Source: Psammoneis japonica
Taxonomy: Eukaryota
Direction of reading: 5' to 3'
DNA length: 64,000 nt
Assembly (NCBI GenBank): GCA_008632985.1
Contig: QPGO01000029.1
Coordinates: 260,874-324,873, forward strand
Shown here: piece by piece, positions 1-58,040 of the stretch
Layout of the letters: the number at the start of each line of letters is the position of its first letter
Numbering within the stretch: the stretch's first letter is position 1
Translations under genes and position numbers: made by a program
Notes under the pieces: generated by a model
The model's input: only the letters and a program-made list of their open reading frames with translations
What the model was told of the DNA's origin: nothing
Databases searched by the model: none

Positions 1-23
1 TGCTGCGTTTTGATGCTTGTGTT

Positions 24-258
24 GGTCGAGACACAGTCCTGCAGCTGAGCAGGATGGACAAGACCTCGGAGGTTGGCAGCAATGTGAATGGCGACAGAGG
101 CAAACAGACGCTTGTTGAAAGTCGTTGTCTAGAAAATTATGATGAATGTCGTTGCTTCTGTTTGAATCGATTTTGTGATGAGCTAATTGTTTCGAAGAGA
201 AAATCTGAGTCTGGGTTGCAGTCGTGAGATGCAACCAGAATGACGTTGAGTCGTGACT
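24..258 (-). repeat. 3' LTR of Copia-1
   Basis: Matches 6715-6949 without gaps, 11 mismatched bases, all transitions. Confidence 0.95.
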
Positions 259-267
259 CTCCCTCTC
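259..267 (-). other. Polypurine tract of Copia-1
   Basis: Minus strand GAGAGGGAG immediately precedes the 3' LTR. Confidence 0.75.
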
Positions 268-279
268 AACCGAGAGAGC

Positions 280-3200
280 TTGCCAGCCCACAAGAGCCTT
301 TCTAGCCGTGCGGAACGCATCGGTCCGTAGTCCCTTCGTGAACTGATCGGCTAGTTGCTCTAGAGTGCTGACAGGTTGGATGTCGATCTCCAATTGTTCG
401 ACTTTAGTCCTAAACCAGTGGCAAGGGATGCCGATGTGTTTGGTTCGCGGAGACAACTTGGGCATGTGTGCGAACTTGAGGCACGCGGAGTTATCTTCGT
501 ACACAACGGACGCAGGTGGGACATTCTGCTCTACAGGCGAGTCATCGGTGCCTTGGGTTGCGAGCTCAAAAGCCTTGGAGTGAGTCGTGACAGGGTTTTG
601 GCGGTCAGACTTTCCGAATGCGTGGTGGTTGAGCTCCTTGAGAACTTCACGAATGGGGATGAGATCGCGCACAGCTTGAGAAAGTGCGACACACTCCGCT
701 TCCACAGTCGACAATGCTGCAAGAGTCTGCAGCTTGGACACCCAGATGAGCGGGCAGCCGGCGCAGTAGACAAGGTGTCCAGTCCTGGACTTGACAGAAA
801 CTGGGTCTTGACCATCTTCCACACCAAATGACCCCGCGAAGTCAGAATCGACGCAACAATCAACTCGATGATCTTGCACAGGCTTGAGAATGAGACCTTC
901 AGCAGCAGTTGCTTTGAGGCATCGGAGCATCCACTTCACTGCAGCAGCGTGGGACGCTCGGGGCGCAAACGAGAATCGAGCCACTTGATGTGTGGCATGT
1001 GCAATGTCTGGCCGGCTGTTCGCTGCCAAGTGCATCAACATTCCAACAACTGAGCGACAATCGCAGGGTTCATCAAAAGGCAGGCCGTCCGTGTCGGCAC
1101 CAACAGCCGCAGGCAGAGCTGGAGCAGATGCTCCATTGCAATCCTGCATCTGTGCGGTGCGCAGGACCTTGTCAATTAGACCGGGTTGAGTGAGTGGAAA
1201 TCGACCCTCGGAGAGCTTTTCGATCTTGACACCGAGAAAGTCACCGACTTCTCCTTCGTCTCTAAGTTCAAACACGTGGCGATGTTCGTCATCGGAGACT
1301 CCTAACTTGCGAATTTCGGCTTCTAGAGCTTCAGCTGAAGCTCCAGCAAAAACGGTGTCGTCGACGTGCACCACACACATCATGCCCTCTTTGAAATACA
1401 AACAGGGATCTGTGGCTGAAGGCACCCATCCGCGCTCGGTTAAACCAGCTCGTAACTTCTCGTAGAAGCCCTTGGGAGACTGTTTTAGGCCGCACAGTCC
1501 TTTCAAAAGTTTGAGAACCACACTGAGTCCCGACCTTGGCGCAAATCCCTTCGGCGGTGTTGTGCAAACTTCCTCGGCGACATCAGCTTGGCAAAAGGCT
1601 GTGGCACAGTCCACCTGTCGTGTGGTCCATCCCTCCTTTAATGCCGCAGTGAGCATGAGTCGGACACTGGACCATTGCACAACCGGCGCGCAGGTTTCGA
1701 AGTGGTCGACTCCTTCTTTCTGCAAATCACCGCGGACGCAGTGTCGGGCCTCATGCTTGAGAGGGGTTCCATCTGGGAGTCTCTTGAGCTTCAGCGCCCA
1801 TGTGCCTGGAAGTGCATTCATGTGCGGCTGACGCTCGACTGCTTTCCAGGCTCGACAATGTGTGAGTGCGTTGACTTCAATTTTCATCGCCTCAATCCAT
1901 TCGTCAGCATCCGGACCTTTCAGAGCATTGTGTGACGAAGGCATGTCAGGGTCCTTGGTTTTCTTGCTAGCTGCGCAGGCTCGTGGATCGCCGACATTGA
2001 TGGCGCCACTGTCCAAATCCGTCTCGAGAGTCGCCAGACACGCCAGTTGAGCCTCGTGTCCGATCGGCAGCGGCATTTCCTCGACGGAGCTGAAGTGGAC
2101 CTCATCTGCAAACTTGGCAGAGTTGAGCTGTCCCTTGGTTGACCGTGAAGACCGTCGCAGCCCTGGCGCTCCCTCTGGATTCGTCACAGGAGGTGTCTCG
2201 ACTGGGGGAGGAGCTGTTGGTTCCGTCGGCGCTTCGGGTGGCGGAAGTCCGTTGCCATCTTGAGGTTCAGGTGGCTGAATTGGCGTAGAGTCCGCAGAGT
2301 CTGTAGGAGTTTGAGTCGCAGGTGGGACTGGTGGCGTTGGCTGCTGAGTCACAGGTGCGACTCGATTGGCAACGTCGTCGCGAGAAGTGGGTGAATCCGG
2401 CACAGTGATCGATGGAGCAGGCTCAAAATGCCCGCGAATGCGTGTTGCTCTGGCCAGTTCTCGTTCTTGCACGTACGCTGGACATCCCCATGTGTGAATG
2501 TCGCGCAACCGATGTCTTGGCACTGTCGAACCGGTGAAAATGTCCGCTGGGCAATGTCCTTTGGAATTTGGGGTGACATTGTAGATGTGCGTGGCATGAG
2601 AAACTGCCATGGGCCACAGGGAGCTGTCAATTCCCCCCTTCCAGTGGATTGATGCATGAAGCAACATCGCTCTCGCCATGTTGGAGATGCTGCGGATGCC
2701 CCGCTCTGCGACGCCGTTCTGATGATGGGCGTTGGTTCCACAAAAACGGAGACGTTGTTCATGTTCTCGCACGTGTTGTACAAAAGCGTTGGCCTTGAAA
2801 GCGCCACTGTCGGCAAGAAATTCTTGGACGATGACCCCGTGGTCCAAAGCATGTTTCTCAAACGCTTGCTTCGCGTGCATCGTCTCAACAGCGGAGAAAC
2901 CCAGTTGGTGCTCGACCTGGACATAGCCAGAGGCGTGGTCGACAAAGACACAACCACCCTTGAATTGCTTGGACGTGGCTTTGCCATAAGAGTCGAAGGT
3001 GCGGCCTAAAAGGCGCGACTCAAAATGATCAACGCTGACAGCCTGACCCGGTCGAAGATGGTCAGCTCGAAGGGCCCCGTCGCGTTCAGGGACTGTCGAC
3101 TTGTGAGTAGATCCAAGAGAGCGTCCATGACCTTTAGCACATTCGCATGCCTCGCATCTTGGGTGGTCACACTTTGCTGCGGACTGGAAACGGTTCGAAA

Positions 3201-6200
3201 GGAACGGAACTGCGCGGAGAAGTGCTTGGACTCGACCAAAGTTCAAATGGCCAAAACGGGCGTGCATTTCGAGAAGAAGCTTTTGGCCTGCCGTGAGGTT
3301 TTGATTCTCCTCGTTAAGGATCTGAAGGTTCACTTGAGGAGCGGCAGATGCGCCCTTGGTCATCGACGCAACAGGCAAGTGGCTTGATGGATGATGTGGC
3401 ACGACCAACTTGCCTGTCCCGTCAACATGTAAACGGAAAGTGGTTTCATCGCCCTCACACTTCCCACGTACCCCCTTCTCTTCGTTGAAGAGGCGTTGAG
3501 GCGACAGCAGGCGCTGACGGGCTCCAGGGACGTAGCATGCCATGGTGTTCAGTTGGATGGTAGCCCCACTCGGCGTTGTGAACACCCACGCAACTGGACC
3601 GGTGCCCTGGATGGCAAGACCGTTGGCAATCCCATTGATCTGTAAGGGTTTCTTGGGAACAGTCACAGGCCCCGTAAAATCATCTTTGTCGGGGGCAACA
3701 GCTAACGTGGCACCAGCATCCATGACGACCGTGAGAGCCTCGTCCGACAGACCGATGAGTGCCTGCGGATCGGATGCAAGGAGGTTGGCTTGTGATTGTC
3801 CGGTGAGTAGTTGGATGGTGGAGGCACCACAGACGACTGGTCGAACACTTGCTTCCTCCAATGGTTCCACAGGATCTTGAAAATGGGCAGTGTCCACGAT
3901 GTGATGCGGCAGACAGAGCTCATCAAACCGGAAGAAATCCGGGCTGAAGTCCTCAAGAGCGTCAAAGAAATGCTTCTGGTCGTCGAGAGGTTCCAGTTCC
4001 TCACAGGTGTCAAAGAAGGCTGATTCGTCTATCGCATCAGACCGTTCAGCTACTTCTGGGCTCTCCCAGCAGGCCTTGAGACGAGTGCTCAGTGCGTGTG
4101 ACGGATGGCGCGCGACAAACTCGGTGAGCACTTGCGTGCCTTTGATCCTGTGATGTTCGAACAGTGACCCCGTATCCAACACTGTCCGGTCATCTGGCTC
4201 TTCCACAATGTGGCAGACTTGAGAGCCAGCGGTCGAAAAACGACTTGGTGCATTCGAGAATGGATGCTCGGGCTGTTGACCGGCGCAAACTGCTGACCAC
4301 ACCATCACTGCAACGGATGGGACCATCCAGGAGGCTGGAAACCCGTGCAAAGTTGGGAGTTTGCACTGGCGGCGTAGAGCTCGAGGGATGCATGGGATCG
4401 GAGCAAAGCAAAGATGCAGTGCCGTTTCCCAAAACATGGCGGCGAGCCAGAATGTGAATGGCTTGACTCGACCCAAGAGTGAGCGACGCGAAGTGGGCTC
4501 GTCTTCGACGTCCTCGTGACAATCATCCGCATCCAGGACCTCTGGATCGTAGAAATCAAAGCCACGATGCGTAACACACGGAGGCAAGTCGTGGCATGCG
4601 TCTTCAAAGTGTACGTCGTGTTCAAGGATGAGATCTAACTTGGTGTCGTCTGACAGCATGTCCGTCAAATGTGCGGGAGCATCAAAGAACTCATCTGGAT
4701 GCTTGACAGAGCACAGCTTCGAGGCCGGAAACAACTCAATAGCCGGTGGTTCGTTTTCAAAGGTAGAGAAAGCGTCGGAGCACTCGCAGAAGTCATCGGC
4801 GTCTTCGGGAGTGACAGTCTCAACCACGATGGGAGACACGACTGGATCCACGACTGAGGTGAGCACAGGTGGGCTCGTTTCGATGCAAACCACCTCAGCA
4901 CTAACGACTGCATCGCTCTCCCTCTCGGCCAAAGAAGCCGGAGTAACAACAATTGCAGCAGCAACAGGGGCGGAACAGAAATCCGGGTCGGCAACGGGAT
5001 CCATAGCCGCGCACCACATTCCCGTGAAAACCAACTCGTTGGGGTCGGATTCGTCTCCCTCTGGTGCCTTGGTGGTCTGAGCGGGCGGACCCATGGGCAC
5101 GCCACTGTCCGGATCAGCAATGGAAGACAAATTCCCGGCTGGGGTCTCCTTGGGAGGTTGCCTGCGGTCGTCGGCATGTTCCGCGGTAGAGTGCTTCTGG
5201 CAGATTCCAGGTTTGTCGGCACCCTTTGCCGTGCACGTGGCACACCACTTCCATTCCTTGCCATTCTTATCCTTCTTCGTTTCTCCGTCAAATTTAGTGC
5301 GCCAGGCAGCGATGGGTCGCCTCTTCTTCTTGGAAGGGTCGTCTGCAGGCGGCGGATTGGGAGGAGGATCGTCGCGCGGCGGTTTGGCGTTGCACTTCGG
5401 ACACGTCTTCTTGGTGCACCCCTCGAGACCGCAACCACAACAGTGCTTCGTCTTCCCAGGGTTGTCCGTAGTCGAAAGATTGCTCTCGGGTAGCTTGGCG
5501 ACTAATGCAGGCCATTCCCCGTCCTTCACGAGTTCGTTGTGTTGCTCTTGAATCCACGCAATGATGCCGACCAGTCCGAGCGTTTTGCAATCGCTGTCGG
5601 ACACGATGTCAGCAGGATTCTTGAGGCGGTGCTTGCGTTCCATGGCCTTGACGTCGTCGAGCTTGTTGCAGACTTGGCGATTGAAGCATTCAGAGGATGC
5701 AGAGGAGATCTTGTGGAGCAACTTGGAGCTTGTGTTCGCCGGAAGCGCGCAGTCGGTCTGCACAATTTTCACGATGCGAAGAGCTTCGGTGGCAAAGTCC
5801 GTGCAATCCTCGCCGGGATGGTCAACCAAACCAAGGTCTTCTGGCTGCTTCTTGGCCGTCTCAATGTCCGCCAGAGCGCTGGTGTTGCAAGTGTCGAGAG
5901 CCATCATGAATGGAACAGATCCAGGGCAGTCTTGGCAGTCCGAAAGATGGTTGAACTTGGTCTCGATTTTCTCGCGAAAGGTGTCAGTGATTCTTGAGTG
6001 AACGAGAAGTTGAGAGAGCCCGACATCGTCGAGCTCAATCTCGTTGTACTTGGCATCATCGGCAGCTGCTTTCCCAACCGTGTACTCGTTCACGAGATCG
6101 GTCACAGTAAACTCGTGAAGATGGTCGAAGACACATTGAACCTTGTCGTTGCTGTCCTTGACATGGCAGAACGTCTGCTGACCGTGGGCTTCTGCTAGAT

Positions 6201-6552
6201 CTCGAATGGTCTTGACGAAATGGTCCTTGTCAAGCTCGTTGATGGGACCGTCCGAAATCTCAAGTCGACCGTTGAACTTGGAAGTCATTGCGGAAGCTTG
6301 TTGATCGCGGAGAGATCGTTCTGTCGAGTCGAGAGCCTTGGGATGACGGCGCTGAGAGGCAAGTCGGCAGGTTCTGTCGTTGGATTGTTTGCAGTTGTTG
6401 TTGAGTTTGGAACCACCAATGTAAACCCCGTGGGTTGGGTGAATTCCACCACGCAACGGCTTGGTTGGAGCCGGAGGAGCGGTCGCCGCGGCGTCAGCGG
6501 CCATTGCATCGGCAAACGCCTTCGCCAGAACATCTTGATCGATGGCAGCCAT
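280..6552 (-). pseudogene. Copia gag-pol polyprotein, about 2090 codons, frame apparently open but with conserved Tyr replaced; natural stop lost
   Basis: Read manually (absent from the ORF track because the frame runs off the window edge without a stop). ATG at 6552 (MAAIDQDVLAKAF); gag WKWCATC..H....H; protease MDAGATLAV; integrase VSVDHFE and HQNGVAER; RT LKGLCGLKQSP and CVVHVDD (1357-1368); RNase H CVDSDFAG, EAECVALS, LADQFTKGL; ends KALVGW then CAA (280-282) where TAA is expected. Frame spot-checked at several points, not at every codon. Confidence 0.9.
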
Positions 6553-6714
6553 GACAGAGAGTGCAGCATGGGAGGTTCTTGTTAGAGTGAAGACGAGAGA
6601 AGCGAGAGAGACTCAGCTATTTCCCGGGTTTGCTTCAAAATCAAAAACCGAAAGCGTCCGTGACGATGACTCGGTCAGGAGCTCTCGTCAACGCGTGAAT
6701 TGGTCTCTGTGACC

Positions 6715-6949
6715 AGTCGAGATGCAGTCCTGCAGCTGAGTAGGATGGACAAGACCTCGGAGGTTGGCAGCAATATGAATAGCGACAGAGGTAAACAGAC
6801 GCTTGTTGAAAGTCGTTGTCTAGAAAATTATGACGAATGTCGTTGCTTCTGTTTGAATCGATTTTGTGATGAGCTAATTATTTCGAAGAGAAAATCTGAG
6901 TCTGGGTTGTAGTCGTGAGATGCGACCAGAATGACGTTGAGTCGTGACT
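6715..6949 (-). repeat. 5' LTR of Copia-1
   Basis: Direct repeat of 24-258; retains TA at most sites where the other LTR has TG or CA; followed on the minus strand by a possible primer-binding site (T)GGTCACAGAGACCA. Confidence 0.95.
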
Positions 6950-7156: not shown

Positions 7157-8981
7157 ATGGAGTCCACTAATGGTGTCGACAACTCGAAGCAACAGAAATC
7201 AGTAGCACAAGAGACAACCGGTGACCCGTCGCACACGTGCCCGTACTTGGATACCATTGATCGTTCCGTGTTGGACTTTGACTTTGAACCGTCGTGCTCC
7301 GTGTCGTTGGAGTCGGGTCCGCACGTTTACGGGTGCTTGGTGTGTGGTAAATTTTTTCGAGGACGCGGTCAGCATACACCCGCTTATACGCACAGTGTGG
7401 ATGATGGGCACTTTGTCTACGTTCACTTGGCACGTGGGACCTTTCACTGCTTACCAGATGATTATGAGATTAAGGATCCGTCACTTGCAGATATTTCAGA
7501 CGCTCTACATCCTCATTTTAGTCAAGACGATATTGATAAGGTCGATACAAACACTGGACTGGCTCGAGATTTGTTTGGGCGTCGGTATTTGCCCGGCTTT
7601 GTGGGCTTGAACAATCTTCACAAGACAGACGGTATCAACGCTATAGTTCAAGCCTTGGCGCACGTTCGACCTCTTCGAGATTTTTTCTTGCGCATGACAC
7701 ACAATGATGTCTCTATTGAAACTACAAAGTCAAAGAAAAAAGCTCACAAAAAGATCAAGCTGCAGCAGCAAGGGCCGCATCGCTTGTCACCGTTGGTGTT
7801 GTGTTTTGGTGAGCTCATTCGCAAAATATGGAGTGATAAGCGTTTCAAGAGTCATGTGGACCCTCACATGCTTGTTCAGGCCATTACGGTTGCATCAAGT
7901 AAGAAATTTCGAGTCGGCCATCAACCCGAAGCTGGTGAATTCATGGCGTGGCTTCTCCATCAGTTGCATGTGGGGTTGGGAGGGACGAGGAAGCCTGGAT
8001 CTAGCATTATTCACAAACTCTTTCAGGGACGTGTTCAAGTCACTACACGACAACGGCGAATTGCGGATATGTCAAATCTAGAAGAAGATGATCGGGGTGG
8101 CAGTGACGAGGAAGAAAATAACGAGGAGCACAAGCAACAGCCAGAGGTTGTAGTTGATGAAAACACGACAGATACGCACTTTTTGCAACTAACGCTGGAC
8201 ATTCCCGAGAAGCCCTTGTTTCGAGATGACGAGGGAGGCCTAGTCATTCCTCAGGAACCACTCGTCTCTGTATTGAAAAAGTTTGATGGCATGACGTTCT
8301 CCGACGCAATAGATCGGAGTGGCGTGGCACAAAAGCGTCGGTACCGTTTATTGGAGTTGCCAAATTACCTCATTTTGCACTTGGCTCGGTTCAAGAACAA
8401 TCGCTACTCCAAGGAAAAGAATCCCACCATTGTGGCCTTTCCGGTCAAGAACTTTGATTTGAGTGAATACGTTGTTCATCCGGACGGGAAGCGGGAAGAT
8501 CCTCCGACTGAGGAACAAGTCAAAGCAATGAGTGTGAGTTGAAGGACTGTCTGAAGCTATTGCTTTTTTGCCATAAACTCCTAACCTGTGTATCTCCTAC
8601 TCATTTCACTCAACATAGACCAAGCAGCTCAAAGTACTTCTCGCCAAACACGGACGACAAGAACTGGGAGCCAACATTGTCGAAAAGTCTGAACTCGTGT
8701 CCGTCACGCTTGATTTTGTCACAAAAAGTTTGCCCGACATGCTTGCCGACAAGTATGACCTTGTAGCAAACATTACGCACCACAGTCCAGCAGAAGTTGG
8801 GAGGGAGGGACAACATGATCCGTTACAAGAGGGCTCGTACAAGTGTCATGTTCAGCATCGGGGGACTGGTCAATGGTATACAATGGAAGATCTTCATGTA
8901 GAAGACACTATGCCGCAGTTGATTGGACTGTCAGAAAGCTACGTCCTCATCTTTGAACGCAAGGGTATCTATGCTAAATGA
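7157..8981 (+). CDS. USP39: U4/U6.U5 tri-snRNP-associated protein 2 (USP39/Sad1), 2 exons: 7157-8533, 8619-8981, 579 aa
   Basis: CPYLDTIDRSVLDFDFE, ZnF-UBP (YGCLVCGKFFRGRG), YLPGFVGLNN with Asp in place of the catalytic Cys, EKNPTIVAF, YDLVANITH, SESYVLIFER; GTGAGT...CATAG intron 8534-8618 joins the two ORFs in frame. Confidence 0.95.
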
Positions 8982-9309: not shown

Positions 9310-9556
9310 TAGGGCCCTCTACTCTCTAGAGTAGGCCCTCCCTAATCTAGCTCTCTACTCTAGTCTCTCTAGTAGAAGTAAGGTAGCTAGCTGCTACTCT
9401 AGAGAGTAGCTACTACTAGTTGGTTATCCGTACAGATAAGAGAGGCTGACAAAGAATTGTGTGCGAGTGCACTCTAGCCCTGCTCTACAGATAGAACTGT
9501 GGAGCGAGAACAAATCGTGCCGTAGTCTCTAGGGCCCTACAGTAGCTAGGGCCCTA
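9310..9556. repeat. CTA/TAG-rich low-complexity patch with short palindromes
   Basis: About 30 TA dinucleotides in about 250 bp, mostly CTAG/GTAG/CTAC; TAGGGCCCTA at 9530-9539 and 9547-9556. Confidence 0.7.
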
Positions 9557-9645
9557 CAGACAGATCGTCCCACTCGAGTCGAATAAGTCGTTGCTGCTGC
9601 TCGAAATTCACGGTAAACACAACACACAACCAACAAACACACACC

Positions 9646-10245
9646 ATGGCGACATGCCCGACTTCTGCCTCCAGTACGACTGCAAATACAACCACATCAG
9701 AAACAACAATCATGCCTCCAGTACAGTCTATGCCCACATCGCACGAGAACTCCGAGCTCGCGGATGGCAAAGGCACCAGCACTCATGCTGGCGAATCGCA
9801 GGAATCACCCCCTTCCAAGCAAACGCCGACGCAGTGTTTGTCGCCAACCCAATTGAAAACCGATGGGGCGTCGGAATCTTCAATCATCTCGAGTACCAAC
9901 CCCGTACTGGCTTCCACATTGTCCGATAATGAGGGAGAGGTGATGAAACGAAAGCACGAACACGACAGTTGCAATGTTCGGACTAACAAGAAGAGGGGCA
10001 CGCTTCCACTTGCCACTTCGATTCATATGAAGTTGCGTGCTGCCGGGGACGCTGGGGATAAATGGTGGCATGATCTTGAACGAAAACATGGTTTGAAGGA
10101 AGAAGAATCACTCGTGGTTTATGGAATCGTCACAAAGAACTTACACAAAGAAGAGTTTCCACCGGTCGGCGAAGGCTCGAAAAAGGAGTACTTCCTTTTG
10201 GCTAAGGAGGGTTGGCGCTTGATGAAGAATACAACGCTCTGCTGA
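9646..10245 (+). CDS. Hypothetical protein (Ser/Thr-rich N-terminus, charged C-terminal part); possibly transposon-associated or a pseudogene
   Basis: 199-aa ATG ORF after an AC-rich leader; normal TA/CG content; no recognisable family. Confidence 0.4.
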   Translation: MATCPTSASSTTANTTTSETTIMPPVQSMPTSHENSELADGKGTSTHAGESQESPPSKQTPTQCLSPTQLKTDGASESSIISSTNPVLASTLSDNEGEVMKRKHEHDSCNVRTNKKRGTLPLATSIHMKLRAAGDAGDKWWHDLERKHGLKEEESLVVYGIVTKNLHKEEFPPVGEGSKKEYFLLAKEGWRLMKNTTLC

Positions 10246-19733: not shown

Positions 19734-19899
19734 GGATGCCCCCTTTGGGAGACATTGACTTCTGGCTCAACACTTGTCTTTCCACCCCTCCCCTCCATCT
19801 GATCAGCATCCATCTGGTGCCCCTTTTTTCTCCAGTCCTGCTTCTCCTGTGGTTTGGGTGTTGCCACACCATGAGCAGGGTGGGAAATTGCAGTGGCGG

Positions 19900-42430: not shown

Positions 42431-42548
42431 CGCTTCCTTATGGAACGCCCGCACGGACCAAGTCGATTACGTCACGGAACGTCCGAGCAATTAAATTAAG
42501 GTTATGCAGCGGAAACGGGGACAGCCGCGAGAGCGTGTGTGTCGCTTT

Positions 42549-46986: not shown

Positions 46987-48291
46987 CTAGCCAAACGTAC
47001 GATTTGGTCCATTCATGATCAATGAAGCATTTCCCTTTTCGTCGATGGTCATATGCCCTCGCTTGATGAGCGCTTCACGAACTTTTTCGCGGGGTTTGTT
47101 ACACCACAGTTTATGCCGCTTCCAATCGTTTCGCTGGCACGAGGTGTTGCAATAGAAGGCAACACCACATCGCTTGCAACGGAGCTTGTCTATTGAGACT
47201 TCGGAGCACCATTGACACATGCGCGCACCTATTTCTTCTCGATAAATTGCTTTGCCAGGTTTTGGAGCTTTCTTGGGTGATGGTGCTCCTCGCGGCAATA
47301 GAGGAATGTACAGCACTGCCTCTTCATCCTTGATTCTTCGTCCGCCTAGCATGAACGCCACAGCTCCTTTCTGTTCTCGTACACTGAATCCACAGTAGTC
47401 GTAAAGAAACTCTTTGAACCCCATTGAGTGCCGTGTTCCGTCCTTTTCTTGCCGAATCTCAACTTCAGCGTTAGTAATCTGCGTTGCCTTCACCATGGTG
47501 TGTTTTGGGGGCGCGTCGTTGTTCAAGCACTCGATCGTGAAATTGCATTCAATAAACCTTCGAACATAGTACCACAGTACCTTGGCTAGACCTTCACCAC
47601 GACGCGACTGCTTGACGGCTAGCATTTCAAGGGTAGGTCCCATAGAAGAGTCAAAAGACCCATCCTCGTAAGTCATGAGACAGCGCGCAACTTCTTCGTC
47701 TTCGTGGAAGAGTGTAAATCGCGTTGCGAGCCCATCCTTACTATCATCTGTAGATCCGAATCCAGTAACCGACACAACTCGATAACCATATCCAATGTGC
47801 GTTTCAACTCGATCATGAGGAACATAGCACAACATTCCAGTTACCACCGACCCATCTTTGGTCTCCACCAACTTCTTCATGAGTTCTCTGCCTTCTGCGG
47901 TAGTGGCATGAAACGTTGCAAAGATTCCCACGTTTGGATCGGGAGAGAAGCCCTCACCATGAGGGTCATCCATGAACCCTTCAACTACTGAGTCTTTGGT
48001 CCGCTTGTTAGTGATTTCAAACTTGTACCTTTTATCGTAGTCGTCCGACGATGCCTTTGGAGGGATCTCTCGGTACTTTAGATTCTTGCTTTTCTTGCAA
48101 ATTTTGGTGAAAAGAACCTTCAAAGTCATTCGAGGATCATGGTTGTTCACAACAGCCCACATTGTGGCGTGATTTTGCATAGCTCGGGGATGAGGCGTAC
48201 CGCATTCGCCGTAATCCCAATTGTACGCCCACTCAGACGGCTCACCCACAACATTGTGAATCCAGTCATAGACTAAGTCTTCTCCGTTCAT
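46987..48291 (-). CDS. Protein with GNAT-like acetyltransferase motif and C-terminal MYND zinc finger
   Basis: LEMLAVKQSRRGEGLAKVL (acetyl-CoA motif A-like); CQWC...CKRCGVAFYCNTSCQRNDWKRHKLWC. Confidence 0.82.
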   Translation of the reverse strand: MNGEDLVYDWIHNVVGEPSEWAYNWDYGECGTPHPRAMQNHATMWAVVNNHDPRMTLKVLFTKICKKSKNLKYREIPPKASSDDYDKRYKFEITNKRTKDSVVEGFMDDPHGEGFSPDPNVGIFATFHATTAEGRELMKKLVETKDGSVVTGMLCYVPHDRVETHIGYGYRVVSVTGFGSTDDSKDGLATRFTLFHEDEEVARCLMTYEDGSFDSSMGPTLEMLAVKQSRRGEGLAKVLWYYVRRFIECNFTIECLNNDAPPKHTMVKATQITNAEVEIRQEKDGTRHSMGFKEFLYDYCGFSVREQKGAVAFMLGGRRIKDEEAVLYIPLLPRGAPSPKKAPKPGKAIYREEIGARMCQWCSEVSIDKLRCKRCGVAFYCNTSCQRNDWKRHKLWCNKPREKVREALIKRGHMTIDEKGNASLIMNGPNRTFG

Positions 48292-48523
48292 AGCTCAAGA
48301 AAATGGAAGACACAGGACGAAGACAACACGGTGCTTACTGTACCGGCGCCGATAGGAAAACGAAAGGCGACAAGACACAAGCCGGAGGAACTTTTGACGA
48401 ACTTTTCACCATGGCTTTTGTTTCGTTTCGGGATCAACATCCAACATCGCGCCCGCATCTCGCGCAGCGCCGTTCGTTGTTGGAGAACGCGGCGCGCGGC
48501 TGTGTCGCGTGGAATTGCATCAG

Positions 48524-50632
48524 CCGACTCCCAGCCACCCCGCTCCAAATCCGCCACCTCGTCATACATCGACGACACCCACATGTTCCTACCCTTTTCT
48601 CAGCTCCCTTGGTTTCTCAAGAAACTCTCTGCCTACGGTCCCCAATTCGGCATCAAACTAAACACCTCCAAGGCCAAAATCCTTACATCCACCACAGGTG
48701 CCTCTCCCATCAGCCACCTCTCACCCACTGATGCCGCGGCCCTTTCCGAAGCCCTCACCTTCCTCAACCCCAACAATGACACACACATCAAGCCCGAGAT
48801 CACCACCGGCGTCTGCTTCCTCGGACAACATGTTGGCTCCTTTGCCTTCGCCATGAACTTCCTGCAAGACAAAGCCACCTCTTTCGCCACAGACCTTCTG
48901 CGCCTTGCCACCCGCCTCGCCGACAAACAAACACAAAGCACCCCATTCCGCAAATGCTCCATCCTTCCATCACCCACCTCCTCTCCACTGACGCATGTTA
49001 CAGCCTTGTGCACTCCAATGACCTCCCACCCCCTTTCGAAATGGCATCTCCCTTCACCGACAAGATCATCGGACACTCCCTGCGTTTCCTTTCCTGTCTC
49101 ACCCAACACACAGATCCCTTCCCTGCCTCCGCTAAACTCATCGCCACCCTCCCCATCTCTTTGGGCGGCGTCGGTTACCGCAACATCTCCACCATTGCCA
49201 TCCCAGCCCTCGTGACCTCACCAATCAGATCCGTTCGACACACAAAACACGGCATCCCACTCACCGGCGGCGATGTCTTCCGACTCCCTTCAAGCCACTC
49301 CTCTGCTCTCAGCTCATGGTCCAACCCATGCTCTGCCCTTTTCCCATGCCGCATGTTCCATCACTGCACCCTGACTCTCCCACCTTACCTCTTTAAAACA
49401 TGCTGTTCAGCACCACACCCCACACGGTCTCACACAGTGACTCCACCCACACCATCACAAACACAACACCCTCCCCCAAATCCTCGCCGATCCTTGCATG
49501 CAGCCAGCTCTCCCATCTTTGCAGTCTCTGCTTGCAAGTCTCTGCCTCAACTCTCTGTCATGTGCCCCGGCCTCAAACCAGCTCCCTTTGAACCTCTTCA
49601 CACTCCTTCTCCTGTGCAAACTCCGCCTTCCTGCAATGTCTTCCAACCCACTCCAATGCAACTGCCCATGCGACCATGCTCGCCCTGACCCTTGCGGAGA
49701 CCATGCCTTCACCTGCTCCAAAATGCACAAAAGCCATCTCGCAAACCACATCCGAGACACCGTCCACACCACAATCGAAACTTTGGGCCCCCTGTCTGGC
49801 CTGTGCTCTTCTTGACAACAAGTGCACCTCGACCTTGCCAGCCTCCTGTCCGACCACCCCCTTGAACGCCCCACCAATGCAGGCGTCCAACTCACACCCA
49901 GCTCTGCACCACCTGGCACCCCTTCCACCCACCAATTTTTGGCCACAGACGTCACTGTGCTGCCCGCTGCCCCGTTTCCTGCACCTGGTTTGCCTGTCCC
50001 TGAAAACCCACTCAACAAGGCTCACCTCAGCAGCACACGGGACAAGCTCCTTGGTCACTCTGCATCATCCACTGATGGATCCGACATCATCGACGCCATC
50101 AACCAAGCCGGTCTCTTCCTTCTCCCTTTCATCCTTGACCACCTTGGCGGCATCGGCTGCCATTTCCACACCTTTTTCTTTGGCACCTCTGCCACAACTT
50201 CCTCCTCCATGCCACCCCTTCCTCCCAAACCACCCTGGACAAGTCCTGCCTCCTTTTCCAACTCTCAGCCATCCTTTTCTGCCTGCACCAACTCACTCCT
50301 TGCACCCTCCGATCTCCTTGCCAACTCCAACGCAGCCTGGAAACAACTCTCTCAAGACCGCTTGGCTCTTCACACCACACCTCAACACCATCGCTTTGGG
50401 CCTCACAAATCCTCAGTCTCAACTTCGGCTTTGCTCTTTCCACCCATCTTTCTGCACACCAAGCTCTTCTCCTCTGCCACCCTGCTGTTGCCAACTCCTC
50501 CTCTCAACTGTCTGTCCATGCTCTTGGTCCACCCTTTTTCTCCCCATCCCCTGGTGCACTTCGTGCGACCCTTCCGCCACACATTTCCCCAGACCCACCC
50601 CTTCCAATGCCATGGACTCCCCAATCACTGTA
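48524..50632 (+). mobile_element. 5'-truncated CRE-like non-LTR retrotransposon (RT, zinc knuckle, restriction-like endonuclease), degenerate
   Basis: SYIDD (48565-48576), GIKLNTSK, GVCFLG..VGS, LPISLGGVG, CNCPC...DPCGDHAFTC, RPTN..V...LATDVTV; frameshifted. Confidence 0.8.
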
Positions 50633-50649
50633 TGAAGTTAGTTCTTTTG

Positions 50650-53600
50650 TGGGGAATCGTTGTCCCAGTGAAAGGGGTGGTCAAATCATGTGGCAAGAAG
50701 CTGCAGCATGAAGTCCATCAGCTTTTTTTTGTGAAACAGCAGTCTTTTTTGCAAAACCAACAGTGGCTTTTTTTGCTGCAGCTTGGGCCCAAATCCCCAC
50801 AGTGCATGTGGTGATCCAGGGGGGGGGGCTCCTTGGCTCTCCTGACCTGTGCCCCTGTGGCAAAGTCATGGAGAAAAACACCAAAAGCAATCCATTGACT
50901 GGACATTTTCAAGAACCAGCTCCAAACTTTTCATTGCCCTGCCCTTCCAGCAAAGCCAGAAAAAATGTGCCAGAGAGAGAGAGAGAGAGAGATCCCTGTG
51001 TTGTTGTCAGCTTGCTGACCCTGCTCTTTAAACAAGCACCTCTCAAGCACACAGAAGTGCTGCCAGCAGCTGCTGTTTGTGACACCAGACTGGCCACATT
51101 TGAGCCAACTTTTTCTGGAGCACCTCTGCAGGAGCATGTGGGCCAGTGCTGTGAGTGCACCAACATCTTTTGTTTGGACAACAGTTTGTCAGCTGAGGTG
51201 GTGGGTGGTGCCCACAGTTGAAAAAGAGGGTCTTTGCAGTTTGCGCACAGCAGGCGATGCTGCAGAGCTGGTGTTGAACAGCAGCAGTGCAATTTCTGGC
51301 ACAAAACCAGTCTGCAAGTGCCCCCCTGAGCAATGAATGAAAGAATCTGAGTGCCCAATGTGAGTAAAGTCAGACCTGGCTTGCTAAAAAGAACAGGTTT
51401 TTGCTCATCATGCTGCCCCTGCAGGCACTGCAGACTTTAATTTGGTTGCTCTCCCATCAGTGAGACACAAGCTGCTGGACATTGGCTCACTTCACATTCT
51501 CACTTTTTTGCTGCTTGTCAGGTCAGCCTTTTTTGGGTCCATGGAGCACAGGCCAGGGTCTGCATGTTTTTCCTGCATCTGCAGATCATTTCCACCATGC
51601 ACTCTCTCAGGCACCAAAGCAGGACAAGTCCACATGACACATGCCCAAGCACTGCCCAGATCTGCAATCAAGAGAATTGAAAATGAATGGGGCTGATCAC
51701 CCGAATGTGCCCATGCTGGTTGGCTGTGTGAAGCCATTGTCACAGCACCTCTGCACAGGTGGGCATGATTTGGCTGCCCACACCCCTTGCTGAAAGATTT
51801 CTCACTCACAGCAGGGGGCTGTGGAAGCAATGTGCCTGTTGTTTGTGAGTCCTCCAGGAGTGCAAAAGATTTCCTTCCATCAATGAAATGGATCAGTTCA
51901 TTGAGGGCCAGCTTTCATGTGAACACATGACAAGCTTCAGTGCTCATGACTGCAGTTTCTTTGACATGGCCAATGCCAGATTCCCATGTCATTTCAGCTT
52001 GTTTGGTGCCACAGCATGAGAGCTGCGCTGCAGAGCAAATCACTGCCAACATTTGGACCAGACCGACCCACATGGGTGCTGGGTTGGAAACAGCTGAAAA
52101 TGGGCAGACCAAAACTCAGCAGTCAGCAGGATCACCATCACCAACTTTCTTGCACTGTGAGACACATCATGTTGGGGATTGAGAATGCATGCATGACTTC
52201 TGAGTTTTGCATGATGATGTCATCCTCATTTTTGGCCGGAATCATCATGCTGAAAAAAGGGGCCATTTGCCAGGCTGCAAACCATGAAACCTCCCAATGC
52301 CCATTGGGTGTCAAGAATGTCACGGCAAGGAGGGTCTCAAACACATTTGGGACAGGCCCAGACAGACAAACCTCACAAGCACTTTGACAAGCTCCCCACA
52401 CTGGAGCTCACTTTTTCTGCAACAGCACAATCAGGACACTCCCACCCTGCTCCAAAATCAGGGCTTTTTTGGCAGCAGATCACAAATGACACTGCTGGGC
52501 TGCAACCTGGCTGGCACAAGATTTGAGCCAAGCACAAGTTGCTGACACCATGCCATCACCAGCAGCACAGTGCACTCACAGGAGAAGCCAAAGACAAAGG
52601 CACAACAATGGCATGCTCCTGACCAACAGTGGCTTTCCAAAAGCTCTCACCATTGAGGGGTCCACATTCATGAATCCACCCACTGTCAGACAAGCCACAG
52701 ACTGAAGTCCAGGAAAAAATCTGATGACCGGCTAAATGTGCAGTGCACATTTTTGAGTTTTCAAGGCTCATTTTGTGCCAAATGCACAAAAACACAATGT
52801 TGTGTAGAAAAATGCACCAGGACTCTCTGTGGTGTCACACACCAAAATGTCACAACACTCTCTTGACAAGCCAGTGACTGCCACACAAAAGCAGCAATTG
52901 AAGTCAAGCAGTGACCACAAAACTCACTGTTGCCACATTGTCAGCTGTTGCCCACTCAAGCAAGTGACAGCACTTGCTGCGCCTGTTTGGTCATTCAAAC
53001 AAGCAGATCCAAGGGTGTCATGCAGGATCTCATGCTGCAAGTTCTCGTCACAGTTGGAAGGAGGTTGTGGCATCATTGACCAGCACTGCACCTGTGCAGC
53101 ATGCATGCAACCAGCTTCAGTGCATTGTTGGGTGCAAAACCTGGTCTCAACCAGCACATTTGGCCAGTCCTCTTCAGTGACAAACCAGCCTGATCAATTG
53201 CAAATCTCACTCATTTGTCCTGACAGGGGTGGCATGTGAAAAAGAGCAAATGTCCACATTCCCCAACAAATGTCTGGGTCAACAAATCAACACCATGTCA
53301 ACCCAACAAGTGTGGAAGAACAATTCAACAACTTTGCACTCACAAAATGTTCAATTTGATGTTGTCAACCAACCAGCTGACAATCAATTGGTTGACTGGC
53401 ATTTTCAAAAGACTGTTTCACAATGACAGCTCTGCAACTCAGTTTCATTCTGCCACATGAAATGCATGCACTGCCATGCAGCATTGCCCTGCTGAATCTC
53501 TCTGAAAAATGCAGTTGCTTGTCATGGTTTTTCATTTGCCAAACCCCAATCAACTCCATTTTGCAGATCTTGGTGCAGCTCACCATGTGGTCTGCAAATT

Positions 53601-56600
53601 TGCATGTGTCATGTGACCCTTCCTCTGTTTGGTTTTTTGTGGCTGGTGGAAATTGTCTTGCACAAATGCTCCCACTGGATGAGTTGTTCACTTGCTGCAT
53701 CTCACTTCATTTCCACAACCAGCTTCTTGAAGAACTTGTTGGTTCTTGGCAACCATCCCATGCTTTTGCTTGGTGTCTTGTGTTGTCTCCTGCATGTGCC
53801 TTCCTCTGCTGCACTCAAGTTGCCTGCCATCATGAAGTGCTTGAGTTGTTTTGTGCACTCCTTTCTCTTTTTCCAGGAGTCCCCTCTGCTGGGGCAATGC
53901 TTTCAAGCTTGTTTGCAACATCTGTCAGAGCTGAGAATCAGCCTTTTGCCTTCTGCTTGTCTTGCATCTTCTTGACTTTGTTGTTTTGACTCTTGAGGGA
54001 CTCCCTCCTTGCCTCCTTGAACTTGGTGAGGCTGCTGTCTCTTGAGTGGCTCCTTGTTCTGTTGCTTTTTGGTCTTGGGGGTGTTTCTCTCCAACACCAC
54101 AAATGTGCTTGATCCATCTGCATCTTGTGCTCCTCCATGGTTCAGTTTGGCATGATGGTTTTGCACAAGTCATGCTTGCCAGTTGGGCCTCCTTGTTTGT
54201 CAATGTTCACATCACAGTCTGACAGCAAAGTGCTGTCTTTTTGTTGTTCTTGCACTGCACTCTGCATGCCATGCATCAAAAATGTTCTCATCAGCAACAT
54301 GTGTGCAATTGCTTTTTGGCACTCAACACACTCACATTTTTGTTTTCAGAGATGCCATTCTTCCAATGAGTGTCTCCCATGACAGGTGATGACATGCAGC
54401 TGCAGAGGACAATGTGCAGTGTTGGGTTTGGCAATCTGTCTTGGAATCACTCCACCAGCGGTGAACTGCAACTCTGTGATCCTTGCCGCAAGTGCAAACA
54501 AGGGCTGCATCATTGACAACAGCATGATCCTGATGTTGGCATTTCCACGCCTCACAAAGGCAAATGCTCCAGCAATGGTGCTTGCCATGAAATTTGTCCT
54601 TCTGTGCCTGACAAGCATTTTGGATTGTTTTGCCACTAGAAAACCTGTCTTGTTTCATTTTCATCCCCAAAGGAACTGCAGGCAAGTCTTTTGCTGTGCC
54701 TCTGGAATGTCTGGAAGCATGCCACACATCAGCTTTGGCCTGCAATTTGGAAAAAAGTCTTTGCATGGCATGTCTGTCTCTGCTCCAATTGCTCTGCATC
54801 AGAGTGTGATGCTCAGAAACACTTTGTCCTTGACATGGCCTCTCAGCACTTTGATGACATCTCTGTTGACCTTTTTGTCATTGGCCGCTCACTTGCTCAG
54901 ATTGGCCCATCTCCTCTGAGCTGCACAGTTGCCATGCTTCCTCATTGTTTTTTTGTGTGGTGTGTTTGCCCATGCCACTGCTGCAAATCTGGTTTGTGCC
55001 CCCCCCCTTGTGTTGTCTCTTCACACCTGGTCAAGTTTTTGATCTGTTAGATTCAAAATGGCACCCACAAGTTTACAAAAGTGTCCCAATTGTTTGTGAT
55101 TGCTGCACCCCCCAGTCAAAAGACAGTCATGTCGTGCAATGGGGTGAGCAAAGCTCTCACAGGTTGGCAGCAATGTAAACAGCAAAGAGGCAAACAGACA
55201 TTGTCGTTGTTGTTGTTCTTGGAGATCATGGCAAAAGTTCATTGCCATTTTGAACAGCGATTTGAGTGGTTGGCCAAACAAATTGATGAGTCTGGGTTGC
55301 AGTCATGATCTGCAACCACCATGATGTTCAGTGGTGACTCAGAGACAGTTGACACAAACAATGCAAATGTCTTTTTCCTGGCAACCTGGCACCCTTGGCT
55401 TGTCCTGTTGCAAACCAATCAGTTTGCAAATTCCATCTCCCAGAATGATGAAAACAAACTTTTTTCAAATGAACCAGCACACTGCACAGCCAATGAGTTC
55501 CCATTGACTCAGGTCAACCACAGTTTGTCCCTCCTTGTGGATTGCAATGCATGCTGCACCATTGCCATTGCCACTGCTTTTGCCACACAAACTGGTGTGC
55601 TGATGCAACTTGACATCATCAGCCTGGGCATGCTTTCCCAAGCCACAGCATTGCTTCATCCCCCCCCCCCCCAACAGGCTTGTGACTCAGGCACATCGTT
55701 CTCCAGAGTCATTTGGTGGCCACAGTGGGCACCACTGTTGCCATTCCCTCTGCTGCTTCTTCTGCCTGTGCCTTGGGTGAGACCCAAGTTGCATCTGGCA
55801 AATTTGGTGGCAGCTGTGCCATTTCTGGTCCCTCTCTGATGTGTTCCCTTGCACAATGTGCTTTTGCTGATGTCAAGAAAAGGGGTTCAGAGGAAACTCA
55901 GGAGAATGGAGGTGACAACAGATGTGTTTAAAAAGAATGAGCTTGAAGAACCTGGTCATTTTGAAATGCTTCCTGGGGCCAGTTTCTCTCAGACACTGGG
56001 CTCTCCAATGACAGTTGTTCAATGCTGCCAGTGCCCTCTGGTCCAAGGGAACATGCCATGTTGTCAAAGTTCTCTTTGTTGACAATGACCTTGCCTGCTC
56101 TGATGATGATGATGCACAAAGAACTTCTGTTGGCATCCTGGACAATCGCAGCAACCCTAACAACAGTGCTCTTGCTGCTGCTCAAGCTGACAGCTCTGAC
56201 AAAGTGCTGGTCAGTTTGACAGCAGCTTGAGCAATTGAAAGAGCAAAGCTGGTGCTGTCAGCTGTGCTGCCAATGACAGTGACAGGTGACAGAAAAATTA
56301 AACAACTGTTGCTGCAGGTGTTGTTGTTGATGGCATTCGCAATGTGTCAGCACACAAACCATGGAGTGCTCTCCTTCAATGACTGTGCTGTCTTGTGCAC
56401 TTTCTAAGGCTGCAGTCTGTGAAAAAGGGTGTCATCAATGGCACTGCAAAAGAGGCTGGTGCCAGTGCTGAAGCCATGGCCCTTGCTGAAAATGGCAAAA
56501 TGCAGATGTCTCTTTGGGCAGCACACTTCCTGGGGTTGACAACAACAACTGCAAACACTGCACTGCTTCTTTTTGTTTGACATCTTCAGTTCTGAGCTGG

Positions 56601-58040
56601 GTGACAAAGGCAGAAATGTGGCTGACATGCCGGGCACTCAGCCAGCTGCTTAAAAAATGTGAAAGCTGGAAAGACAGATTGCTCCATGTGATCAACAAGG
56701 CTGATGGCAATGATCTTGAGTGCACAGGCATGATTGAAGGGTGAGAAGTTTTCAAAGAAAAAGCTGAGTGTGCTCCTGATGGCTCCTCACACACAGCAGA
56801 TGATGACAAAGATGGCAGCACATGCAAACCAAGGCAGCTCAAGCACAGGAGAAGTTGTCAAGGCAGCTGATTTTAGACAAAAAGGTGGCTCAAATTCTGG
56901 CAATGACAGCAAAGCCAAACTCAAAGCTCTGAGCCGGGATTTTGCCAATGGTCATTGAGCAAGAAGCAGACAACAAGTGTGCAAAAATTTGCTGCTGGCT
57001 CAACTTCAGACCAAGGCAACAATGAAAGCTTTAAGCTCAGCAGTGCAAAAAGGAGCCACGTGGCTTTGTTCTTTAACAGGGGATGGCAAACCTGTTGCTT
57101 CCCTGCCCTGATGATGGTGCTGCTGAAGCTTGCAAAGCACTGGGAAATTCTGGCTGTGACAGAGCTCCTGGTTGCCCTGCAAGTGACCCTGATGGCATCT
57201 CTCATAGAAGCCCCAGCAATCTTTCCAAGACATTGGGAACTTTTGACAGCAGCTGTCCTGACAGCACAAAACAAAGAGTTCCTGATGACACAAATCTGTT
57301 CCCAAGCCCTGCAAATTTGACACACTTGGTCAAGTTTCATGCTTCCAAAAGCTTCCAAACCAACCAAACATTTGGCTGACAAAATGGCAATTGTGTTGGA
57401 CAAGAAGGTGCCACATTCTTTTAAAGTTTGAATGGCATGCCTGAACTGCAGCTGGAATTTGCCGAGCAAGCAAAATGCTCAGATTTGGTTGCATCTGATT
57501 TTCAATGACAAATTTTAGAGCAGCTTTGTTTTTGATTGGGCAACAACTGCAACAGTGAGAGCTTCAAATCTCCTCTGATTTCACTTTCCAGCAAAAAGTC
57601 TGCAGGAAATCCCCGTCATCTTTTGGGCAAATGCCTGCCTGGGAAAAACAAACGCTTTAGTGCAAGGCATTGGGAGAGGCCCAGGCATCACAAAATCAAT
57701 GGTCAGCCCAATTTTTGCCCTGGCAAGTGAACACCGAGAAGTCATTTGAAGCTGTGTCATTTGGATTTGTGCAGCTCATCTTCAAACCACGCAGCAACTG
57801 TTGCCCTGAAATGCATTGGGAAACCATCGAAGAGGCTCCCAGAATCCCAGCCATTGAATGGCAAGGCCATCTGGCTCATAAACCTGGACATTGCCCAGAA
57901 ATCACCCCAACCCGCAATCAAAGACAAGGTCACCAAGCAACCCTGACATTGTTTGGAAGTTGTGAGCTTGACTTTAGCAGATTTTGAAGAAAATTTGAGT
58001 TGAGCCAACACCAGGCTTAGAGCTTAGAGCCCGCAGCTTG
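50650..58040. other. Second large TpA- and CpG-depleted degenerate domain, content not identifiable
   Basis: TA and CG almost absent with strong TG/CA excess; only short Cys/His-rich junk ORFs. Confidence 0.88.
50972..50992. repeat. (AG)10 microsatellite
   Basis: Seen directly. Confidence 0.9.

Follow-up and report, generated by a model that had tools for sequence, protein, structure and literature searches.

Fungal repeat-induced point mutation (RIP) works mainly on CpA; TpA and AT content go up, stop codons arise, and both sequence duplication and a premeiotic stage are required. The underlying change is C>T (PMC7296669, PMC3318451). A hypermutation process confined to TpA is described in the main text of a preprint on mutation-accumulation lines of the chlorarachniophyte Bigelowiella natans, where two integrated viral regions received 231 of the 302 nuclear mutations. 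With a single exception these were A>G or T>C, and every such change lay on TpA; the rate was ~6e-7 per site per generation, ~1000x background (bioRxiv 10.64898/2026.01.13.699255). The same text reports 124 genomic clusters of windows that are poor in TpA and rich in CpA+TpG, finds the TpA-poor genes to be enriched in RT and DDE domains, and proposes, without showing it, that an ADAT2-like adenine deaminase is responsible (bioRxiv 10.64898/2026.01.13.699255). Here we analyze a 64,000-nucleotide stretch of DNA from the Psammoneis japonica assembly GCA_008632985.1 (contig QPGO01000029.1, positions 260,874 to 324,873; hereafter the window), in which host genes alternate with blocks that contain Copia-type long terminal repeat (LTR) retrotransposons or older, decayed DNA. 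From the sequence of these blocks we conclude, with high confidence, that they have undergone a real, in-place, TpA-specific A:T>G:C hypermutation. The initial annotation of this stretch had presented such a system as one of which no description was known; that statement is outdated, since the B. natans preprint describes TpA-only A>G/T>C hypermutation and the kind of process is therefore already on record. In the literature searched, that preprint was the sole description we found, and no diatom report of TpA hypermutation was among the results.

To describe the pattern we used the ratio of observed to expected dinucleotide counts (o/e) in 64 intervals of 1 kb, took block edges from 200-bp bins, and pooled the DNA into three classes: host (20.4 kb), young elements (the two Copia elements E1 and E2 of Table 1; 11.2 kb) and old blocks (31.0 kb). 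Host DNA contains 810 TA where 1421 are expected (0.57; 0.36–0.91 across the host-gene intervals) and 1095 CG where 1128 are expected (0.97; 0.69–1.15). The young elements have 123 of 555 expected TA (0.22) with CG at 812/857 (0.95), and the old blocks retain 101 of 2179 TA (0.05) and 304 of 1699 CG (0.18), with TG at 1.88 and CA at 1.75. If TA were as frequent as in host DNA, 316 would be expected in the young elements (Poisson log10 P = -35) and 1242 in the old blocks. The 1-kb intervals give TA 0.00–0.09, CG 0.02–0.45, TG 1.47–2.46 and CA 1.55–2.40 for 11001–31000, and TA 0.00–0.11 and CG 0.02–0.61 for 49001–58000; over the two stretches together TG and CA are at 1.4–2.5. For E1 the corresponding values are 0.15–0.24 for TA and 0.87–0.97 for CG over 1–6000 (0.15–0.30 and 0.87–1.18 over the whole element, 25–6949), and for E2 they are 0.16–0.34 and 0.81–1.07 over 32001–36000.

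The remaining 12 dinucleotides lie between 0.80 and 1.29 in host, young and old classes alike. Within the old blocks AA, AT, TT, AC, AG, GA, GT, TC and CT stay at 0.83–1.25, so that among the dinucleotides containing A or T the depletion is restricted to TpA. Across the 64 intervals the excess of TG+CA balances the deficit of TA+CG (r 0.96, slope 1.09), which implies that the lost TA and CG were turned into TG and CA and nothing else. GC content is 0.51–0.59 in E1 and E2, compared with 0.42–0.50 in the host intervals. The contrast drawn in the initial annotation, between blocks stripped of TA and enriched in TG/CA and the host genes between them, therefore stands. The loss of TA is common to all the blocks, but CG is normal in E1, E2, 37200–37690 and 48300–49400. 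The blocks thus come in two states, with loss of TA only in those four places and loss of both TA and CG elsewhere. Their edges are sharp, to ~200 bp, near 10800, 37700 and 58100; to the right of E2, in the part of the old block at 35849–37690, the loss of CG is partial and CG is normal again by about 37400. Separately, the plus-strand balance of TG to CA shifts along the first old block (TG exceeds CA at 11001–17000, and CA exceeds TG at 20001–25000), which may reflect the orientation of decayed elements or the original composition.

The direction of change can be read from protein-coding positions. We aligned E1 with 60 Copia homologues and considered the 442 columns that are at least 70% conserved among them. 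Only 2 of 19 conserved tyrosines are retained in E1, the others now being 11 Cys, 3 His and 3 Phe, whereas every other residue type is kept at 50–100% of its columns. Tyr stands at 0.6% in E1 and, in the E1 segment compared with the homologues, at 0.8% (median of the homologues 2.9%), with Cys at 3.0% and His at 4.7% of that segment (medians 1.7% and 3.2%), and the catalytic motif of the reverse transcriptase, normally YVDD, reads HVDD. When the 80 mismatches at conserved columns are read as single-step codon changes, 22 are TA>TG, 4 are TA>CA and 2 are CG>TG/CA; the rest comprise 7 other transitions, 20 transversions and 25 that require more than one step. In every instance of Ile>Val, Met>Val, Thr>Ala and Lys>Glu in E1, the preceding codon ends in T.

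The same signature appears in a non-transposon protein. The product of the CaMKII_AD/SnoaL-like frame at 36023–36490 has 44 homologues, at no more than 71% identity and several of them from named diatoms; its 156 residues include 10 Cys and no Tyr, and all six conserved tyrosines have become Cys. Among 101 conserved columns it shows 26 mismatches, of which 7 are TA>TG and 11 CG>TG/CA. (Tyr counts for E2 were set aside, as this element is too distant from the homologue set, keeping only 12 of 35 control columns.) The claim that conserved tyrosines had been converted to Cys or His is thus confirmed by both E1 (14 of 19) and the SnoaL-like gene (6 of 6), and these columns indicate that the direction of substitution is TA>TG/CA.

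The two LTRs of one element are identical at insertion, and comparison of the window with itself identified three LTR pairs, those of E1, E2 and the older unit E3. The E1 pair differs at 10 columns: 6 are TA/TG or TA/CA, 2 are CG/TG or CG/CA, and the last 2 form one TG/CA double. All 8 of the one-sided differences place the loss in the 3′ LTR, the TA or CG being intact in the 5′ LTR, and the changes divide 3:3 between TA>TG and TA>CA, implying that both strands were hit within a single LTR. The E2 pair differs at 18 columns (4 TA singles, 4 TG/CA doubles, 5 CG singles and 1 transversion), so that 27 of the 28 mismatch columns of the two young elements lie within dinucleotides derived from TA or CG. 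Each E2 LTR has lost about half of ~15 original TA but only ~13% of its CG (16 CG are intact in both copies and 5 differ), rough figures given the small numbers, and is almost free of other substitutions. The simplest ancestor of an E2 double would be a TA or CG at which each copy changed once; by our estimate decay of CG alone would give ~0.2 such sites, and the 4 observed must therefore derive from TA. By reconstruction, the LTRs of the young elements held ~9–15 TA when they inserted.

In the E3 pair the process has run to completion: one TA remains in one LTR and none in the other, one CG remains in each, and there are 18 TG/CA doubles, which imply ~36 ancestral self-complementary sites compared with the 17–19 CG expected by composition. 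The earlier suggestion that A>G occurs on both strands is borne out by the even split in E1, by the joint excess of TG and CA, and by the doubles in all three LTR pairs. As judged from these comparisons, the change took place after insertion, in place, and on both DNA strands.

Loss of TA depends on the neighboring bases. Of the 101 TA that the old blocks retain, 34 stand in TTAA, 36 in CTAA/TTAG and 12 in GTAA/TTAC, but only 1 in GTAC, 1 in ATAC and none in ATAT. Relative to host density, retention is 0.56 for TTAA, 0.35 for CTAA/TTAG, 0.07 for GTAA/TTAC and at most 0.06 for the other classes. Most classes are fitted by a model in which TAN survives independently on each strand (TAA ~0.75, TAG ~0.47, TAC ~0.09, TAT ~0.04), although CTAG falls below the prediction (0.06 vs ~0.22). 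Within E1 and E2, TA in ATAN contexts has already dropped to 0–0.18 of host density, with the other classes at 0.23–0.67. For the 10 LTR events that could be polarized, the mutated strand read TAC 5 times, TAG 3 times, TAT twice and TAA never, and where both LTRs of a pair still have the TA, it generally reads TAA or TAG on each strand. Surviving CG shows no comparable effect of context (0.12–0.26), as expected for plain methyl-CpG decay. The order of loss suggested by these counts, which is new here, is TAT and TAC >> TAG > TAA.

This preference for TAY (Y, pyrimidine) also explains why Tyr codons, which are TAY, go mainly to Cys. The excess of Tyr>Cys over Tyr>His (11:3 in E1, 6:0 in the SnoaL-like gene) resembles a bias toward the sense strand, but a TAY preference accounts for it equally well, and we claim no strand bias. 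Split by the base before the Tyr codon, the Cys:His ratio is 5:2 after a purine and 12:1 after a pyrimidine.

The hypermutated sequence is also present in reads. In a DNA run (X1), 93% of the sampled words of 44001–54000 were found, and k-mer contigs built independently from this run span hypermutated 9554–19589 at the depth of host genes (~55–60) with few differences; one such contig of 2927 bases differs from the window at 11 letters. That independently built contigs carry the same sequence makes an assembly or polishing error unlikely, although the confirmation is only partly independent, as X1 is possibly the source of the assembly. Among the best 40 of 176 differences between reads and window, 28 rows lie in the old block and represent ~25 events: 2 TA/TG, 7 CG/TG or CG/CA, 3 TG/CA doubles, 6 other transitions and 7 transversions. 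Host genes account for 6 of the same best 40, none of the TA or CG kind. Judging from the types among these best 40 of 176, variation between alleles or strains is dominated by TA and CG contexts as well. Whole TG/CA swaps between window and read contigs occur at 12169–12170, 12684–12685 and 16745–16746, as if a single ancestral TA or CG had gone to TG in one allele or strain and to CA in the other; this would be a hint that the process continued beyond their divergence.

We also surveyed 72 Copia loci from metagenomes, with near-intact peptide motifs required, so that mutated copies are under-sampled. The TA-erased state was found in one of them, a 1789-bp contig (L024) with TA at 0.04, CG at 0.20, TG/CA at 1.64/1.69, 0.9% Tyr and the motif CVDD. 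The other 71 loci have TA o/e values of 0.36–0.87, and in none of them do more than 2 of the conserved Tyr columns show Cys. The 5 TA that survive in the erased contig are all in TAC.

As far as the distribution of losses indicates, the targeting leans toward a chromosomal domain rather than sequence homology, and so away from the 'repeat-directed' label of the initial annotation. Three observations favor a domain effect. The host-type SnoaL-like gene is mutated. The stretch at 10673–12673 is saturated despite its single-copy read depth (58–72, compared with 54–60 for host genes). Finally, E1 has a read k-mer depth of 3683–5742 against ~55 for unique DNA, implying a family of about 70–100 copies, and yet its gene-proximal LTR is spared: in 200-bp bins the return of TA begins near 6600, still within E1, on the side of the neighboring ubiquitin hydrolase (UCH) gene. 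The sparing of this 5′ LTR could reflect its position next to the gene, an untranscribed 5′ U3, or an assembly that mixed copies of the family.

The initial annotation had proposed a mutator acting on DNA as a genome defense. The evidence above supports a process at the level of DNA that changes A:T to G:C at TpA only, strikes both strands and keeps to non-genic or putatively silenced blocks, and we have moderate confidence in the fuller proposal of a TpA mutator of silenced, transposon-rich domains that works by adenine-deaminase chemistry. A sequence-specific mutator of this kind would act in place on double-stranded chromosomal DNA within such domains, and would convert the A:T pair of 5′-TpA-3′ to G:C, leaving TG or CA according to the strand struck; a site once turned into TG or CA would be immune to further change. 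It would take TAT and TAC first, TAG next and TAA last, and would convert TA several-fold faster than methylated CpG decays in the same domains, CpG decay being a second and separate process. Coding capacity would be destroyed through the change of Tyr to Cys or His, while stop codons would never be created, and this property would explain the 2184-codon open frame of the dead E1 (1–6552), which continues through the 3′ LTR to the edge of the window. Most likely an enzyme deaminates adenine within TAY, giving hypoxanthine, which is read as G; this enzyme would probably be a TadA/ADAT2-like or other deaminase-fold protein; and a chromatin or silencing domain, rather than homology, would presumably direct it. 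We favor adenine deamination because it yields A>G directly, stops at TG/CA and makes no stop codons. More tentatively, diatoms may carry a dedicated editor of double-stranded DNA, either a 5′-TAY-3′ adenine deaminase or a thymine modifier, that is recruited to silenced chromatin, removes TpA from transposons and from whatever else lies in the domain, and shares ancestry with the B. natans system as part of an old genome defense of the SAR supergroup.

Several points weigh against this proposal. The argument is made from sequence, and neither an enzyme nor a modified base nor a new mutation was seen. A>G is indistinguishable from T>C on the partner strand, so that sequence alone cannot separate an adenine route from a thymine route. 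A preference for a pyrimidine at +1 fits the tRNA loop recognized by bacterial TadA, and fits the substrates of eukaryotic ADAT2/3 poorly. If the assembly mixed copies of the E1 family, the comparison of its LTRs would report differences between copies instead of change after insertion, and the best 40 of 176 read variants do not show how far the E1 losses of TA are private. The assembly may itself have been built from X1, a run of unrecorded platform. Lastly, the old blocks are without protein-domain proof of being transposons.

The chief rival, which we consider unlikely, is thymine oxidation: a TET/JBP-type dioxygenase would mark T in TpA of silenced repeats (as 5-hydroxymethyluracil, 5hmU, and then 5-formyluracil, 5fU), and mispairing or misrepair would give T>C. 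A>G at TAY is formally T>C at RTA (R, purine) on the other strand, and 5hmU is a mark of transposons in dinoflagellates, where, according to the source consulted, it preferentially replaces thymine in TA and TC (PMC11572971). TC, however, shows no clear depletion here (1.18 in host, 1.29 in young elements, 0.97 in old blocks). It also counts against this route that 5hmU paired with A is weakly mutagenic.

Error-prone patch repair or translesion synthesis in heterochromatin, for example misinsertion of G opposite T at TA by a Pol-eta-like enzyme, is distinctly less likely. Pol eta, which underlies the A:T phase of antibody hypermutation, has a WA (W, A or T) hotspot with an A>G bias that resembles TA>TG; CpG decay in the same domains would moreover supply the mismatches. 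But AA is not depleted (1.19/1.16/1.23 in host/young/old) and AG is not enriched (1.03/1.01/1.00), transversions make up only 1 of the 28 LTR columns, the loss of TA comes before that of CG in E1 and E2, and near-complete erasure of a single dinucleotide would be hard to achieve in this way. GC-biased gene conversion, ultraviolet photoproducts at TA and Pol-eta WA mutagenesis were likewise set aside on grounds of context, given that AA, AT and TT show no change and there are few transversions.

Editing before integration, whether A-to-I editing of retrotransposon RNA or deamination of cDNA during reverse transcription, is very improbable as the source. Deaminase editing of vertebrate LTR retroelements is known from the source consulted (PMC4866542), and a cDNA editor could produce an element such as E1, in which the changes lie in the 3′ LTR and the 5′ LTR has escaped them. 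ADAR-type editing predicts sense-strand A>G only, the same in both LTRs; instead, both products are present and the LTRs differ at TA sites. Editing of RNA or of the minus strand gives one outcome, which is at odds with the even mixture of products in one E1 LTR, and at 4 sites of E2 one LTR went to TG and the other to CA. Erasure covers whole blocks with sharp edges and ignores the limits of elements, a host-type gene is affected, and TG/CA doubles and TA/TG differences between alleles lie within the old block. Because both strands are hit, whole blocks have sharp edges and a host-type gene is included, we rule out editing of sense RNA or minus-strand cDNA as the main cause.

A technical artefact, in which modified bases within repeats were consistently miscalled or wrongly polished, is hardly plausible. 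The platform of the assembly and of X1 is unrecorded, and the run is possibly the assembly's own data, but the k-mer contigs reproduce the blocks at normal depth, the changes follow a logic at the level of codons and LTRs, a contig from an unrelated metagenome assembly is in the same state, and an artefact would not spare TTAA and CTAA while erasing ATAT and GTAC. Scarcely credible, finally, is a native composition or selection by which the elements simply avoid TA: TA is under-represented in the host too, but conserved catalytic and structural tyrosines have been destroyed (including that of YVDD), the LTRs held their reconstructed complement of TA at insertion, and 71 of the 72 related metagenome loci have TA at 0.36–0.87.

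The in-place, TpA-specific mutator that we prefer would act on elements whose identity is better established for the young copies than for the old blocks. E1 and E2 have the features of Ty1/Copia elements, with an RVT_2 domain, flanking LTRs and, clearly in E2, a short target-site duplication. E2 is a clean insertion nested in the older block: its termini are TG..CA, and the 5-bp duplication TTGCA is identical on both flanks. The duplication around E1 is only approximate (TGTTG, with a one-base offset). E3 is probably a decayed Copia element, as suggested by a frame at 16695–18350 with weak but correctly ordered matches to Copia reverse transcriptase and C-terminal motifs (E 0.0015–0.003, in a set of 120); these are the 'SLYGL...W-Y' and 'ADxxTK' stretches, with Cys or His where homologues show Tyr. 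Read through its stops, this core matched no Pfam family. A Pfam scan of 148 open frames gave no transposon domain above the cut-off in the old blocks, and the frames of at least 90 residues in 10810–31297 had no Pfam domain of any kind; tblastn with 120 homologues and a local hidden Markov model built from 60 of them detected Copia only in E1 and E2. The initial view that the blocks are transposons thus stands for E1 and E2, with their Copia reverse transcriptase, whereas for the old blocks the repeat nature rests on the E3 LTR pair, still 77% identical, and on raised read k-mer depth, parts of E3 being repeated 2–12 fold by this measure.

Table 1. Elements, blocks and margins in the 64,000-nucleotide window (positions within the window).
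Feature	Position	Strand	Remarks
E1, young Copia LTR retrotransposon, TA-only depletion	25–6949	-	RVT_2 3e-32; LTRs 95.7% identical
E1 3′ LTR, mutated copy of the pair	25–258	-	3 TA vs 9 in 5′ LTR
E1 5′ LTR, largely spared, ~200 bp from UCH gene	6716–6949	-	9 TA (18.1 expected by composition), 13 CG
Old hypermutated block, TA and CG nearly gone	10810–31297		TA o/e 0.00–0.09, CG 0.02–0.45; edge ~10800
E3, old LTR-flanked unit	12781–19772	+	LTRs 12781–13131 / 19431–19772, 77% identical
E2, young Copia LTR retrotransposon, TA-only depletion	31298–35848	-	RVT_2 5.5e-27; LTRs 93.5% identical
E2 LTRs	3′ LTR 31298–31573; 5′ LTR 35573–35848	-	Self-comparison of window
Old block, part right of E2	35849–37690		200-bp bins TA 0–1; TA back sharply at 37600–37800
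Hypermutated CaMKII_AD/SnoaL-like host-type gene	36023–36490	+	Pfam CaMKII_AD 1.8e-9
TA-poor, CG-normal margin of third block	48300–49400	+	Five 200-bp bins: 10 TA vs 46.9 expected by composition
Second old block, hypermutated, both TA and CG erased	49400–58040		TA o/e 0.00–0.11, CG 0.02–0.61; edge 58000–58200

Two further features of the blocks may be noted. The margin at 48300–49400, which has no Pfam match, includes a TA-poor, CG-normal frame at 48331–49215 (+) containing '...SYIDDTHMF...GIKLNTSKAKIL...', motifs that we take to resemble a non-LTR reverse transcriptase. A short, tandem-like direct repeat (30273–30386 and 30415–30527, 75% identical) lies within the first old block.

Between the blocks, open frames match ubiquitin hydrolase with zf-UBP, LRR, RWD/Prp3_C, DUF1995, zf-MYND and ESF1 in Pfam. 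The closest relatives of the ESF1 frame are 48–57% identical, and those that are named come from pennate diatoms (such as Fragilaria, Nitzschia, Cylindrotheca and Pseudo-nitzschia). These proteins are ordinary eukaryotic ones, and they mark the window as nuclear DNA of a diatom. A contig from a second read run (X2) jumps 85 bases of the UCH gene at window positions 8534–8618, which have GT..AG ends. This segment is a spliced intron, and with its removal the long frame at 7157–8542 comprises only the first UCH exon. The run X2, which skips this intron, resembles RNA; the transposon parts are without X2 contigs, from which we draw no inference about expression. A third run (X3) yielded no sequence that could be placed on the window.

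If our reading is true, TpA-specific A:T>G:C hypermutation of invading DNA would now be known from two lineages only, and diatoms, which are major primary producers, would enter the record for the first time. B. natans belongs to the Rhizaria and diatoms to the stramenopiles, both within the SAR supergroup, and the occurrence in both suggests that the process is not one alga's quirk. The range of targets would widen from integrated viruses to LTR retrotransposons and a neighboring host-type gene, the TAY > TAG > TAA motif would be a constraint that any candidate enzyme must meet, and the kinetics indicate that the loss of TA outpaces methyl-CpG decay. A natural enzyme that turns A:T into G:C on chromosomal DNA would, if real, be of interest for base editing. 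There are also consequences for annotation. Erasure of TA removes TAA and TAG and therefore produces false long open frames and over-prediction of genes; the window has 58 open frames of at least 150 residues, many of which overlap each other within blocks. Erasure also hides transposons from domain searches, and under it LTR divergence greatly overstates the age of an insertion.

Compared with known systems, the process shares with fungal RIP an in-place, dinucleotide-specific transition hypermutation that inactivates transposons and can catch neighboring or duplicated genes. It differs in that A:T becomes G:C at TpA, TpA vanishes, GC rises in the young copies and no stops are made; the hallmarks of RIP (C>T at CpA, enrichment of TpA, AT-rich products) are absent, with TpA at 0.05–0.22. 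That the direction is opposite to RIP, as first proposed, is supported, and the process would, if true, be its mirror image. Deamination of 5-methylcytosine at CpG accounts for the CG>TG/CA changes of the old blocks and for 11 of the 26 changes in the SnoaL-like gene but cannot remove TA, which is 78% depleted in E1 and E2 with CG intact; here too the initial claim, that it explains the CG component only, is borne out by these two elements. ADAR and APOBEC enzymes likewise leave clustered, deaminase-type transitions in retrotransposon copies, but they act on RNA or single-stranded cDNA, on one strand, and their changes arrive with the insertion, whereas the changes here are on both strands, follow insertion and cover whole domains.

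The closest likeness is to B. natans, as its preprint describes it: A>G or T>C at TpA only, yielding TpG or CpA depending on the strand, and confined to foreign or silent regions. The window shows the same A>G/T>C changes, the restriction to TpA, the involvement of both strands, and local confinement with normal neighboring genes. The allelic TA/TG differences and TG/CA doubles between window and read contigs may be an indirect sign of new mutation. The differences are that new mutations were followed in culture in B. natans, a rhizarian, whereas the host here, by its sequence, is a diatom; that its targets are integrated viruses, compared with LTR retrotransposons and a host-type gene here; and that its main targets retain TpA (Rho 0.45), compared with near-complete erasure (0.05). 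The main text of the preprint has no TAY>TAG>TAA hierarchy, no ordering of TA loss against CpG decay, no timing from LTRs and no erasure as near to complete as this. What is new here is thus the diatom host, the retrotransposon targets and the TAY motif, the kind of process itself being known from that one 2026 preprint.

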